Sequence record: PZ386965.1
DNA length: 64,000 nucleotides
Strand: one strand, 5' to 3'
Source: a phage
This document shows, one piece after another, positions 42,202 to 46,894 of this stretch. The notes below the pieces were generated by a model. The model saw only the letters and a program-made list of their open reading frames with translations. It did no database searches and was not told the origin of the DNA. The translations under genes and the position numbers were made by a program. Numbering within the stretch: the stretch's first letter is position 1; each line of letters begins with the position of its first letter.

Positions 42202-43380
42202 TTAGAAATATTTTTTGTATGAATTGATTACATTTTGGTCTACATCATTATCAATTTGTGCGACAAGATAAGAACTGATTTCAACTTCCTGAGGAGCTGC
42301 TTGAACTAAATCGGAGTTCAGATATTCACGAATCCAAGGATACGGATGCTTGGTCGGAGCATTAGTGATTGGGCATGGCAAACCACACTGCTTCATACGA
42401 GACACAGTCAAGTAATCAACAAAAGCACACATACTCTGCGTATTGATACCTGGACATGTACCGTCTTTAAAGAGGTGTGCAGCCCATTCCTTCTCTTGTC
42501 TATTTACTTCCATAAAAATATCAACTGCTTCTTGTTCACATTCTTTAGCAATTTGAACCCACTCATCACCATCAGTACCAGATTGAAGTTGACGGATAAT
42601 GTACTGAGTACCCTTGAGGTGGAGTTGCTCGTCACGAGCAATGAACTTCATAATCTTTGCATTACCTTCCATAATTTCCATATTTTTATGGAAGTTGAAA
42701 GTACATGCAAATGATACGTAAAAACGAATAGCTTCCAAGGCGTTGATAACATGCAAACAGAGATAAAGAGACTTCATTAGGTCATGTTTACATTCTTCCA
42801 TGTGCATAAGACTATTTGAATATGCATCTAAATCATATTCATTTTCAGAAAAACATTTAAAAATTTCTTTAGCATTTTCCCATTCACGGGTTTTAATCAG
42901 AACGTCATCATAATAACGTCCAATGGATTCAGCGCGTTTCATAATAGCTTCATCTAATACAATTTCATCAAATACCTTCGATGGATCGGTATAAAGATTT
43001 CGCATAATATGAGTATACGAACGAGAGTGAATAGTTTCACTGAATGTCCATGTTGCGACCCATGTATCTAATGAAGGGTCAGAAATCAGTGCCATAAGTA
43101 CCGCAGATGGGGCCCTGCCTTGGATAGAATCTAATAATGATTGATACTTAAGATTGTTTGTAAAGATGTCCTGTTGGAACTGAGGAAGCTTATTGAACTG
43201 CGCAGAGTCCAACATCAAGTTTACCTCTTCTGGGCGCCAGAAAAACGACAATTGCTTTTCAATAAGTTCTTCAAAAACTTTATGACGCTGAATATCATAC
43301 CGTGCGAGGCCAAGACCAGAACCAAAGAACATCGGTTCATTCAAAACATCGACTTGTTGCGTGTTAAAAACTGTACTCAT
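42202..43380 (-). CDS. nrdB: ribonucleotide reductase small subunit
   Basis: 392 aa, continuous ORF with no intron. Confidence 0.93.
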   Translation of the reverse strand: MSTVFNTQQVDVLNEPMFFGSGLGLARYDIQRHKVFEELIEKQLSFFWRPEEVNLMLDSAQFNKLPQFQQDIFTNNLKYQSLLDSIQGRAPSAVLMALISDPSLDTWVATWTFSETIHSRSYTHIMRNLYTDPSKVFDEIVLDEAIMKRAESIGRYYDDVLIKTREWENAKEIFKCFSENEYDLDAYSNSLMHMEECKHDLMKSLYLCLHVINALEAIRFYVSFACTFNFHKNMEIMEGNAKIMKFIARDEQLHLKGTQYIIRQLQSGTDGDEWVQIAKECEQEAVDIFMEVNRQEKEWAAHLFKDGTCPGINTQSMCAFVDYLTVSRMKQCGLPCPITNAPTKHPYPWIREYLNSDLVQAAPQEVEISSYLVAQIDNDVDQNVINSYKKYF

Positions 43381-43434
43381 TATATTTTCTCACTTAGTTA
43401 TAACTCATCCATGAGTAAATTATAATCAAAAGTC

Positions 43435-45690
43435 TTAAAGCTTACAAGCAGAACAATCTTCAGCTTTAGGTGTTTCTAATTCATAGTCATCTGTACCTGA
43501 CCCATCACGAGTGTTATGATAGTAGAGATTTTTTCCGCCAAAGTACCAGAAGTAAAGCAGATCGTCAAGCATTACCGACATTGGCACTTTACCTTTCTCA
43601 AATACTGCAGGGTCATAGTAAGTATTAGCAGAAGCAGACTGGCACACCCATTTCAACATGATAGCAACTTGGGTCAAATAAGGTTTATTACCTTTCTTAG
43701 CAAGTTTCCACGCATAGTCGTAAAGACTCATGTTATGTTCGATATTAGGAACAACCTGTCGGAAGTTGCCTTCTTTAGATTCTTTAATACTTACTGGGCC
43801 GCGTGGTGGCTCAATCCCGTTTGTAGAGTTAGATACTTGACTGCTTGACTCACAAGGCATGAGTGCAGACAACGTTGAGTTACGAATTCCGTGTTCTTTG
43901 AGTTCAGCTCGAAGTTCTTCCCAGTCACAGACGTAGTTCGGGGCTGCGATTTGGTCAATCTTTTTATTGTACCAGTCGATAGGTAATTCGCCTCTAGACC
44001 ATTTAGTGTCTGAATAATACTCACAAGGTCCTTTTTCTTTGGCGAGTTTGATTGAAGCTTTGATAAGGCCATATTGCAATCTCTCAAACAATTCATGAGT
44101 CAAATCGTTAGCGTCTTCATATGAAGCAAAGTTAGAAGCTAACCATGCAGCATAGTTCGTAACACCAACACCGAGATTTCGACGTTTTTTAGCTTTTAAA
44201 GCTTCTGGAACCGGATAATCTTGATAGTCTAACAGGTTATCAAGTGCACGTACTTGTACTTCAGCAAGTTCATTAATTTTATCTTGGTCTTGCCAATCAA
44301 ATTTATCAAGAACAAAAGCGGATAACGTGCATAAACCAATTTCAGCATCATGGCCATTCACATCATTAGTTGGAATAGCGATTTCACAACATAAGTTACT
44401 CTGACGAATTGGAGCTTTTTCACGAATAAACGGAGTGTAGTTATTCGTGTTATCAACAAACTGTGGATAAATTCGAGCAGTACCAGAACGTTCAGTCATG
44501 AACAATTCAAAGAGTTCTAATGCTTTGATTCTTTTCTTTCTGATTGTTGGGTCTTTTTCAGCTTTCTCATAAAGCTCACGGAATTTATCTTGATCTTCAA
44601 AGAACGAGTAATATAGTTCGCCTGACATTTCGTGAGGGCTAAATAAAGTAATATAATCATTTTTACCAAGGCGTTCCATCATGAGGTCATTAATCTGAAT
44701 TCCGTAGTCCATATGTCGAATACGGTTTTCATCCACGCCTTTGTTATTTTTCAGAACTAATAGGTTCTCTACTTCTAAGTGCCACATCGGATAATACGCT
44801 GTAGCAGCACCACCACGAATACCACCTTGAGAACAAGATTTTACTGCAGTTTGGAAATGTTTCCAGAATGGAATAACACCTGTATGTCGAACTTCACCCA
44901 TACCGATCTTAGAACCTTCTGCACGAAGCATACCAACGTTGATACCGATACCAGCTCGTTTAGAAATATATTCAATAATTGATGCTGAAGTTTTGTTAAT
45001 AGATTTTAACGAATCACCGGCTTCAATAACTACACAACTAGAGAACTGGCGAGTTGGAGTACGAGCACCTGCCATAATTGGAGTAGGCAACGAAACTTGA
45101 TGAGTAGAAACGGCATCATAAAAACGAATAATATGTTTCAAACGGTCATGAGTTTCGTCTTGATGTAAGGCCATACCAATAGCCATGATAGCAAACTGGG
45201 GAGTTTCATAAATCTTACCAGTTGTTTTATCTTTAACCAAGTATTTTTCTTTAAGCTGCATAGCACCAGCATAAGTCAGGTCAAAATCTCGCTCGTGTTT
45301 AATCTGAGAATCAAGATAAATGATTTCTTCTGCAGAATATCTAGACAACAACTCGGGATCGTATTTGCCTTCATTAACACAATACGAGATATGGTCGATA
45401 AAAGCAGGAGGTTCAAACTGTCCATATACATCTTTACGAAGTGCAAACATTAATCCTTTAGCGGCGACATATTGATAATCAGGTTCTTCGACAGAAATCG
45501 AGTTAGCTGCAACTTTAATACAAATCTTCTGGATATCTTTGGTGCTCATCCCATCGACAAGATGGGTCTTAATTTCTTCATACAATTCATATGGGTCGAT
45601 TTGTGTTCCTTCACATTGCCAAGTTAAGACTTGAATAATTTTCTGTGCATCAAAATTTTGGGATACACCACTGCTCTTAGTTACTTGCAT
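43435..45690 (-). CDS. nrdA: ribonucleotide reductase large subunit
   Basis: Track ORF begins at TTG; internal ATG (MQVTKSSGVSQNF) matches the T4 NrdA N-terminus; about 751 aa. Confidence 0.93.
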   Translation of the reverse strand: MQVTKSSGVSQNFDAQKIIQVLTWQCEGTQIDPYELYEEIKTHLVDGMSTKDIQKICIKVAANSISVEEPDYQYVAAKGLMFALRKDVYGQFEPPAFIDHISYCVNEGKYDPELLSRYSAEEIIYLDSQIKHERDFDLTYAGAMQLKEKYLVKDKTTGKIYETPQFAIMAIGMALHQDETHDRLKHIIRFYDAVSTHQVSLPTPIMAGARTPTRQFSSCVVIEAGDSLKSINKTSASIIEYISKRAGIGINVGMLRAEGSKIGMGEVRHTGVIPFWKHFQTAVKSCSQGGIRGGAATAYYPMWHLEVENLLVLKNNKGVDENRIRHMDYGIQINDLMMERLGKNDYITLFSPHEMSGELYYSFFEDQDKFRELYEKAEKDPTIRKKRIKALELFELFMTERSGTARIYPQFVDNTNNYTPFIREKAPIRQSNLCCEIAIPTNDVNGHDAEIGLCTLSAFVLDKFDWQDQDKINELAEVQVRALDNLLDYQDYPVPEALKAKKRRNLGVGVTNYAAWLASNFASYEDANDLTHELFERLQYGLIKASIKLAKEKGPCEYYSDTKWSRGELPIDWYNKKIDQIAAPNYVCDWEELRAELKEHGIRNSTLSALMPCESSSQVSNSTNGIEPPRGPVSIKESKEGNFRQVVPNIEHNMSLYDYAWKLAKKGNKPYLTQVAIMLKWVCQSASANTYYDPAVFEKGKVPMSVMLDDLLYFWYFGGKNLYYHNTRDGSGTDDYELETPKAEDCSACKL

Positions 45691-45777
45691 ATATTCCTCA
45701 GTATAGGTTGATAGACAATACTCCAAACGGGATAGTATTTATCCCGTTAATTTATTATACACTTTTAAACTGAAGCG

Positions 45778-46032
45778 TTAATTATCCTCAGCAATAATTT
45801 CTTCATATTCTTTAGGAGTCAAGACTGTAATATCGAAATAAACCAGAGGCTCTTTTTCCATACCGAATCCACCACAGAATTCACGATATTCATAAATTCG
45901 TTCATGTGAATGGCAAATGAATCGTTCACCTTTAACTGTGATTTCACTATTCGGTGAAGGGATATCCAGTTCACTTGGATTTTTCATTTCAAAAATTGTG
46001 GTGCCATATGAATTAATAAAACGTAAAATCAT
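45778..46032 (-). CDS. hypothetical protein (84 aa)
   Basis: Track ORF begins at GTG; internal ATG one nt downstream of the td stop. Confidence 0.5.
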   Translation of the reverse strand: MILRFINSYGTTIFEMKNPSELDIPSPNSEITVKGERFICHSHERIYEYREFCGGFGMEKEPLVYFDITVLTPKEYEEIIAEDN

Positions 46033-46033
46033 T

Positions 46034-46894
46034 TTATACCGCCATTTTAGCTTTGATAGCTGGATGTGATTCGTAATTTTTAAGAATGAAATCACTCGGA
46101 TTCATATGCTCTGTTACCCAATGAAGCTGTAATGTCGTGCTCCAATCAGAGAATCCTTCAGGCCAATCAATTTTAAGTTCACACAGTTCTTTAGGCTCAC
46201 GACGAAGAACTTCTTTGCATTGTTCTACATGATTGCTGTAGATATGCGTGTTGCCGCCTGAGAACACTAAATCACCTGGGATAAGATTACACATCTTCGC
46301 TACGATATGAGTCAAGGCAGCGTATGAGGCAATATTAAACGGTAGTCCTAAGAATACATCTACTGAACGTTGATACCATTGCAGGTCAAGATGACCATTA
46401 CGTACGTTGAACTGATAAAACATATGACATGGAGGAAGAGCCATTTGGTCGATTTCAGCCGGGTTCCATGCAGAAACAATTTGACGTCTGTCATTAGGAA
46501 GAGCTTTAATACGATCGATAGTTTTAACCAATTGGTCCACACCGCCGAAATCTCGCCATTGTTTACCATACACAGGACCTAGTTCACCACTGTGATATCC
46601 AAGGTCTTTAGCCTGATTTTCATAGTTGTCGTCCCAAATAGTTTTACCTTCAATAAGGCTACCATGAGTACGAAGACGTAAATCATTAACGTTGGTAGAA
46701 CCAGACATGAACCACAGTAACTCGGCAATACAAGCTTTCCATGCTAATTTCTTAGTTGTTACTGCAGGGAATCCTTTAGTCAGGTCCCAACGTAATTTAG
46801 TTCCGAACAGGGCAATTGTTCCTGTGCCTGTACGGTCGTCTGTTTCGTAGCCATTTTCTAGGATATCATTAATCAGGTATTGGTATTGTTTCAT
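46034..46894 (-). CDS. td: thymidylate synthase
   Basis: 286 aa, continuous ORF with no intron; ThyA family. Confidence 0.95.

Follow-up and report, generated by a model that had tools for sequence, protein, structure and literature searches.

Uninterrupted td and nrdB genes and empty homing endonuclease sites in the nucleotide-metabolism cluster of a Mosigvirus phage

The phage DNA analyzed here (sequence record PZ386965.1), hereafter the window, is a stretch of 64,000 nucleotides (nt), representing 64 kb of a genome of ~168 kb with ~100 kb lying outside its view. It contains a nucleotide-metabolism cluster of the type known from phage T4, where the layout is denA-nrdB (with an intron and I-TevIII)-nrdB.1-mobE-nrdA-nrdA.1-nrdA.2-td (with an intron and I-TevI)-frd. 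In the window, the two genes that are split in T4 are continuous (lengths of products in amino acids, aa):

46034-46894, minus strand: td, 286 aa, uninterrupted; the T4 intron point falls between 46346 and 46345.
42202-43380, minus strand: nrdB, 392 aa, uninterrupted; the T4 intron point falls between 42705 and 42704.

The td product matches the Pfam family Thymidylat_synt over its full length (1-266 of 266, E=3e-97, 325 bits), and from this full-length match above the cut-off, td is predicted to encode a functional thymidylate synthase. Aligned with the genomic T4 gene, window td nt 1-548 correspond to T4 nt 1-548 and window nt 550-719 to T4 nt 1567-1736, and the 1017-nt T4 td intron has no counterpart in the window. 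Across the T4 exon junction (marked by a slash), the window reads ...TTCTTAGGA/CTACCGTTTAAT... and T4 ...TTCTTGGGT/CTACCGTTTAAT...; over a longer stretch, the window has ...CAACGTTCAGTAGATGTATTCTTAGGA/CTACCGTTTAATATTGCC... and spliced T4 ...CAACGCTCAGTAGATGTTTTCTTGGGT/CTACCGTTTAATATTGCG.... A T4-type group I intron (~1 kb between td nt 549/550, codons 183/184) is absent, the window being collinear with the spliced td of T4 and of the related phage LF82-4. In the part encoded by T4 exon 1, the window and T4 Td proteins are 88% identical. The nrdB product matches Ribonuc_red_sm (E=2e-37, 130 bits, covering 9-271 of 281), a match above the cut-off from which we predict a functional class Ia ribonucleotide reductase small subunit, and it is 84% identical to T4 NrdB in the exon 1 part. 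Here the window reads ...TTTGCAT/GTACTTTC... and the T4 junction ...TTTGCGT/GTACCTTT...; the T4 598-nt nrdB intron is missing from the window in the T4 alignment, as is any insertion of ~0.6-1.1 kb after the T of ...TTTGC(G/A)T and before GTAC.... At the nucleotide level, the window and T4 are just ~77-80% identical in td and nrdB. Chance is no issue for either gene, since both are long conserved open reading frames (ORFs) collinear with their orthologues. The first-pass annotation had described td and nrdB as single continuous ORFs of 286 and 392 aa, which the ORF map, the Pfam matches, and the T4 alignment all bear out; the alignment with the T4 exons that it proposed as a check finds both intron insertion sites uninterrupted.

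Around these two genes and at two further gaps of the window, the following features were found:

41765-42175, minus strand: denA (endonuclease II), with a GIY-YIG Pfam match (E=2.5e-6), 78% identity to T4 DenA over 136-143 aa, and a PHROG 'endonuclease' match (E=1e-63).
43381-43434, minus strand: 54-nt spacer between nrdB and nrdA, an empty site; T4 has mobE and nrdB.1 here, and LF82-1, LF82-7, and LF82-31 a 213-aa mobE-like HNH gene.
43435-45690, minus strand: nrdA, 751 aa from the ATG at 45690, 87% identical to T4 NrdA.
45691-45777, minus strand: 87-nt spacer upstream of nrdA, an empty site; SSE1 has a 211-aa gene labelled HNH homing endonuclease here.
45778-46032, minus strand: nrdA.2-like ORF (DUF5496), 84 aa, Pfam E=1e-13, 38% identical to T4 NrdA.2, phrog_2458.
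46891-47478, minus strand: frd (dihydrofolate reductase), 195 aa, abutting frd.1 without the extra small ORFs of relatives.
49202-49319, no strand: 118-nt gap between genes 32 and 59; T4 has segG here, and the window shows no SegG similarity.
15600-15649, no strand: 50-nt gap between the divergent genes inh (14931-15599) and uvsW (15650-17164); T4 has segE here.

In addition to the 54-nt and 87-nt spacers, denA and nrdB are separated by 26 nt and the nrdA.2-like ORF and td by 1 nt, while td and frd overlap; because these distances are so short, a mobE-, seg-, or I-Tev-type gene would not fit anywhere from denA to frd, a span of 5714 bp in the window vs 8174 bp in T4. The denA gene itself is a conserved endonuclease II gene with a GIY-YIG domain, neither mobile nor a homing endonuclease. 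Frd is 59% identical in protein sequence to its T4 counterpart. The T4 record places segE, segG, mobE, I-TevI, and I-TevIII at the corresponding positions, and segD between genes 23 and 24. Earlier statements that inh abuts uvsW, that the 32-59 gap is about 118 nt, and that the cluster lacks free-standing I-Tev, seg, or mob genes agree with the measured gaps (50 and 118 nt), with the cluster spacers, and with the six-frame scan described below.

For comparison, we used the 860 phage records with a match to the 5.9 kb that surround the td-nrdB cluster. The closest over this length are Escherichia phages CCU7, PECP20, and pEB20 (~96% identity, gene order alike). Mosigvirus records are 94-96% identical to the window over the 5.9 kb and 94-98% over its first 41.5 kb, where Mosigvirus LF82-4 likewise reaches 94-98%, and the annotated relatives of the window are members of the genus Mosigvirus, as is RB69. 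Because of the high identity and the gene order in common with named members, we assign the window phage, from its sequence, to Mosigvirus, the RB69-like Tevenvirinae related to T4. Several such relatives carry selfish elements precisely at the places at which the window is continuous. In LF82-4, td is split at the exact T4 position by a 1017-nt intron; the I-TevI-like gene inside it encodes 245 aa with GIY-YIG, zinc-finger, and I-TevI DNA-binding domains, and the window is 91% and 98% identical to the two exons. In JK45, nrdB is split exactly where the window is uninterrupted, by a ~1090-nt intron that carries a 269-aa I-TevIII, and the flanks are ~90-92% identical. In LF82-1, -7, -31, and their siblings (10 records), the nrdA-nrdB spacer is filled by the 213-aa HNH/NUMOD3 gene, which has ~75% DNA identity to T6 mobE, and in SSE1 the 211-aa gene annotated as an HNH endonuclease lies just upstream of nrdA. 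Since relatives with 90-98% identical flanks carry elements at exactly these sites, the window alleles are empty ones: the td intron, the nrdB intron, the mobE-like gene, and the HNH gene vary by presence and absence among close relatives, and the window is empty at four of the four sites.

This empty arrangement is a common one. The td intron occurs in 199 phage records at no less than 80% coverage and partially in ~60 more (about 200-260 of the 860), most of the nrdB intron is found in 118 (about 120-170 of the 860), and the majority of T4-like phages sequenced are without these introns. Judged by record spans, 9 of the best 40 of the 860 records have the same insert-free layout as the window; judged by span and feature names, 10 of the best 40 have an endonuclease gene in the 5.9-kb stretch, confirmed from the records for LF82-4, SSE1, and LF82-31. 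Several relatives also have one or two extra small ORFs of unassigned function between frd and frd.1. As to JK45 (MK962757.1), the record taxonomy gives Tequatrovirus jaykay and the NCBI taxonomy dump Mosigvirus jaykay. Its nrdA-nrdB region is ~92% identical to the window, and next to its nrdB intron the exon sequence resembles that of T4, which would be consistent with co-conversion during intron acquisition. Separately, the relatives F2 (NC_054913.1, 13380-13421), KAW3E185, and TH58 contain, at sites without annotation, a 42-nt sequence that matches nt 43-84 of the LF82-4 td intron perfectly, and the full intron is absent there. This sequence could be a piece of some other intron or a structural element that they have in common.

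We then consider the window as a whole. The queries were the complete set of 15 homing endonuclease proteins of T4, taken from its record, and two such proteins from Mosigvirus; profiles built from a GIY-YIG set (10 Seg and I-Tev proteins) and an HNH set were run against the six-frame, stop-to-stop pieces of at least 30 aa from the 64 kb. By tblastn, the queries detect a segD-like remnant only, while the DenA query returns the denA orthologue. The GIY-YIG profile has a sole match at 9907-10353 (E=3e-23) over profile positions 111-202, its C-terminal part, with everything else at E>1, and the best HNH profile match (E=0.04) falls on the NUMOD region of the same remnant. A free-standing seg-type gene with an N-terminal GIY-YIG domain was found nowhere in the window, a motif search giving no match, and with MobA-E, the T4 and JK45 I-TevIII proteins, or the SSE1 HNH gene as query, tblastn produced no window match below E=0.1. 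As controls, the profiles recover the segD-like, I-TevI-like, mobE-like (LF82-31), and SSE1 HNH genes, two of these four being in the training set; they failed to detect I-TevIII, for which tblastn with the full-length JK45 protein was run instead, without a match in the window. The window ORFs without a T4 counterpart have no nuclease domain by Pfam or PHROGs. One of them, a 204-aa ORF (31932-32546, minus strand) that stands in place of T4 gene 30.6, was a candidate because it is as long as an endonuclease gene. It has no Pfam domain, belongs to the family phrog_17531 of unassigned function, and is weakly similar to the FRD2-like family of frd.2, and it is rejected as a hidden endonuclease; a TnsD match (E=0.0017, well below the cut-off) of a 99-aa ORF (38819-39118) is treated as chance.

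The Rfam Intron_gpI model has no match in the window at its gathering score, and the same scan also misses the known T4 td and nrdB introns and the LF82-4 intron; with E up to 10, the region 40000-52000 gives chance-level matches only. Because known T4 and LF82-4 introns are missed, we discard this insensitive scan as evidence and give it no weight. The T4 td and nrdB group I introns, which carry ORFs in their loops, go undetected by Rfam at the gathering threshold, and negative Rfam scans for phage introns should not be trusted. In all, the window covers six T4 positions that have a homing endonuclease gene (segD, segE, I-TevIII, mobE, I-TevI, and segG), and none of the six is intact here. 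The segD position, between genes 23 and 24, still holds remains of a gene:

9904-10326, minus strand: truncated segD-like gene, the C-terminal NUMOD3/helix-turn-helix part only, GIY-YIG absent, with no obvious ribosome-binding site before the ATG.
10216-10240, no strand: deletion junction, a 412-bp loss between the imperfect direct repeats …ACCAGCTTTTGTCTTT and …ACCAGATTTGTCTTTGG of intact relatives.
10217-10435, minus strand: upstream small ORF (phrog_6003), its 3' end lost in the same deletion, residues 1-64 of 88 kept.

The interval 9907-10296 corresponds to residues 99-219 of the intact 219-aa SegD-like protein of LF82-4 (87% identity, tblastn E=1e-69) and, at 40% identity (tblastn E=2e-20), the remnant aligns with residues 95-222 of T4 SegD. 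Its Pfam matches, NUMOD3 (E=0.004) and HTH_17 (E=0.003), are both below the cut-offs, and PHROG gives homing endonuclease (E=4e-12); nowhere else in the window is the C-terminal DNA-binding part of a seg-type endonuclease present. In NRG-P0074 and LF82-4, the 219-aa SegD-like gene and an 88-aa ORF stand between genes 23 and 24, and the window flanks are 99.5% identical to NRG-P0074 on one side and 97.6% on the other. The loss is a microhomology-mediated deletion of 412 bp, its junction within 9-16 nt of microhomology, that removed the catalytic domain: it takes SegD residues ~1 to 100-110, the whole GIY-YIG domain, together with the last 24 codons of the upstream ORF. Because the stretch is undeleted (~1350-1420 bp) in each of the 37 database records spanning it, the deletion is private to the window phage and recent. 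We also considered a protein that binds DNA only, and rejected it, as there is no convincing ribosome-binding site and the ATG lies out of frame inside the truncated upstream ORF. The remnant is judged from its sequence to be a pseudogene and not a working endonuclease. The first-pass annotation had seen a decayed seg-like remnant at 9904-10435, which proves to be this remnant plus the truncated upstream ORF, and the deletion provides a clean example of homing endonuclease gene decay.

Within td, two further features bear on whether the empty site could be invaded and on how it came to be empty:

46330-46372, minus strand: predicted I-TevI homing site; its CAACG motif occupies td nt 523-527 (46372-46368), at a distance of 22 nt from the insertion point, and is followed by CTACCGTTTAATATTGC, identical to T4.
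46277-46703, minus strand: td recombination patch (td nt ~192-618), spanning the I-TevI site.

The cleavage motif of I-TevI, 5'-CAACG-3', lies upstream of the sequence that the enzyme binds, and its C1 and G5 are essential (PMC5009752). We looked for 5'-CAACG-3' ~23-25 nt before the insertion point together with the downstream binding sequence, and window td has both: counted from the insertion point, CAACG occupies -27 to -23, and the sequence from +1 to +16 is the same as in T4. Because the motif stands at the right distance from a T4-identical binding sequence, an I-TevI-type enzyme from a co-infecting intron-bearing relative would be expected to cut window td, and repair after the cut would copy the intron in, as in classic homing. 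The final exon 1 base is A in the window and U in both intron-bearing alleles (T4 and LF82-4); U at this place is dispensable in an intron-less td. In the intron-less ATK47 and LF82-31, td nt 523-527 are recoded from CAACG to CAGAG with synonymous Gln-Arg codons, which might represent a resistance allele.

The patch raises the question of a past event at this site. Compared with ATK47, 55 of the 56 td differences fall inside nt 181-600, with just four amino-acid changes and mostly synonymous substitutions, and the same block distinguishes the window from PECP20, LF82-31, and LF82-4. Among database records, only FP43, Mizar, and phiEC1 have this td haplotype in common with the window; the next nearest td sequences are 86-88% identical and come from Enterobacter, Edwardsiella, and other Escherichia phages. 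The patch includes both the CAACG motif (nt 523-527) and the insertion point (549/550), ending ~50-70 nt past the latter, and a Ser codon inside it is TCA, as in T4, vs AGT in other Mosigvirus alleles. Such clustering over the cleavage motif, in a rare haplotype whose nearest outside sequences belong to other phage groups, is what one might expect if an intron had once been present and precisely lost, or if the allele had been cut and repaired from a divergent intron-less donor, leaving the ~420-nt patch as a scar. We consider these two histories together unlikely, and the narrower proposal, a scar of endonuclease-triggered conversion repaired from the divergent intron-less td of another phage group, quite unlikely when taken by itself. 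Patchy mosaicism is general in these genomes, and ordinary mosaic recombination is the likelier cause, because nrdB has similar patches far from any endonuclease site. Moreover, the td patch is lopsided, extending ~330 nt on one side of the cut site and only ~70-90 nt on the other, and no intron-bearing allele with the window haplotype was found. Past occupancy of the nrdB site was considered and rejected; a T4-like co-conversion tract of the JK45 kind was sought there, and typical Mosigvirus flanks were found instead. If the scar reading were true, homing endonucleases would drive exon mosaicism between genera with no intron left behind.

We very probably have before us an ordinary Mosigvirus nucleotide-metabolism cluster (denA-nrdB-nrdA-nrdA.2-td-frd) in which every selfish-element site of T4 and of close relatives is unoccupied, and nothing was found that contradicts the intron-free, endonuclease-free description. 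The following points weigh against this picture. The ~100 kb of the genome beyond the window may hold endonuclease genes; endonuclease families that do not resemble the T4 ones would escape the profile scan; window td has four substitutions relative to T4 (positions -22, -9, -4, and -1) within the 27 nt that lead up to the insertion site; and cleavage of the window allele by I-TevI is a prediction from sequence alone. 

Another explanation would have the lineage protected by target-site changes or by some other form of exclusion, so that the empty state would signify resistance and not a lack of exposure. The CAGAG recoding in ATK47 and LF82-31 could lower cutting, and RB69 excludes T4 in mixed infection (PMC2993671), both of which speak for such protection; yet window td itself retains CAACG and the T4-identical downstream 16 nt, each element is carried by relatives with near-identical exons, and the window phage recently held an intact segD-like gene, which together make protection very unlikely. 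Least credible of all is an assembly or editing artefact that collapsed or trimmed out introns or endonuclease genes: the 412-bp segD deletion, which none of the database relatives shows, could have arisen by misassembly at a short repeat, but the microhomology at its junction is typical of real deletions, the reading frame and the conserved protein sequence continue across the td and nrdB exon junctions, and the identical insert-free layout occurs independently in those nine of the best 40 database genomes.

The first-pass annotation had gone further and called the genome a mobile-element-poor T-even relative that would serve as a naive recipient for homing. The first part stands for the 64-kb window, with no T4 endonuclease position intact, although not as anything special, the pattern being common. 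As for the second, the role of recipient is plausible for td, with its CAACG and 16 T4-identical nt, but the phage is not strictly naive, because its segD-like gene was recently intact and the flanks are up to 99.5% identical to relatives that still have the gene. T4 would be a poor homing donor because exon identity is 77-80% and RB69 excludes T4; realistic donors would be intron-bearing Mosigvirus relatives, whose exons are 90-98% identical. The practical value is modest: the phage offers empty targets for four elements (the td intron, the nrdB intron, the mobE-like gene, and the HNH gene upstream of nrdA), and these empty sites, together with the 90-98% exon identity to carrier relatives, mean that it could act as recipient when homing is studied by crosses inside the genus, a more realistic setting than a cross with T4. 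The discovery value is small, as the uneven distribution of introns and endonucleases among T4 relatives and their predicted absence in RB69 have been documented for decades. Putative homing endonuclease ORFs show an uneven distribution even among the nearest relatives of T4, RB69 is predicted to be without homing endonuclease genes, and several further genomes are free of them (Petrov et al. 2010, PMC2993671); the td and nrdB introns have long been known as sporadic among T-even phages (review citing Eddy 1991 and Sandegren and Sjoberg 2004, PMC2993671). The finding of intron-free td and nrdB is a correct reading of this already known pattern.

From the ORF map, Pfam, and the T4 comparison, the window runs from gene 17 through 18-23, 24, rnlB, hoc, inh, uvsW, and baseplate genes, continues with alt, 30, cd, pseT, alc, rnlA, denA, nrdB, nrdA, the nrdA.2-like ORF, td, and frd, and ends with frd.1, frd.2, 32, 59, 33, dsbA, rnh, tail-fibre genes, and a few small ORFs; a transfer RNA scan found none in the window. 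Two genes on this map deserve mention in their own right. Hoc (13503-14921, minus strand) has 472 aa in the window vs 376 aa in T4 and LF82-4, and its residues 98-472 and 1-275 each align to the start of the shorter T4/LF82-4 protein, which suggests one additional repeat unit of ~96 aa, probably an Ig-like domain. Adjoining cd is a 330-aa ORF (35642-36634, minus strand) without a T4 counterpart that relatives label DAHP synthase (phospho-2-dehydro-3-deoxyheptonate aldolase), an enzyme of the aromatic amino-acid pathway and unusual for a phage.

Set beside known systems, the window shares with the T4 nucleotide-metabolism cluster its orthologous genes, their order, and their orientation, and differs in being without the td intron (1017 nt), the nrdB intron (598 nt), mobE, nrdB.1, and nrdA.1. 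Within Mosigvirus, RB69, PECP20, PhAPEC2, mobillu, and pEB20 are like the window in their order from rnlA to gene 32, in uninterrupted td and nrdB, and in having no endonuclease genes between them; unlike these relatives, the window pairs a rare td haplotype with a private segD deletion, a combination with no identical database record. Its td resembles the intron-less T-even alleles that receive introns by I-TevI-mediated homing, being uninterrupted, with CAACG kept and positions +1 to +16 T4-identical. The segD remnant has the same place between genes 23 and 24 and the same strand as T4 segD and the segD-like genes of LF82-4, NRG-P0074, and F2, and unlike the intact genes it has lost its catalytic half, with the GIY-YIG domain, and the context of the start codon. 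Homing endonucleases pass through a life cycle of invasion, fixation, decay, and loss. Adding nothing new to that model, the window matches it with its empty sites and one decaying gene, the relatives supplying the occupied sites.

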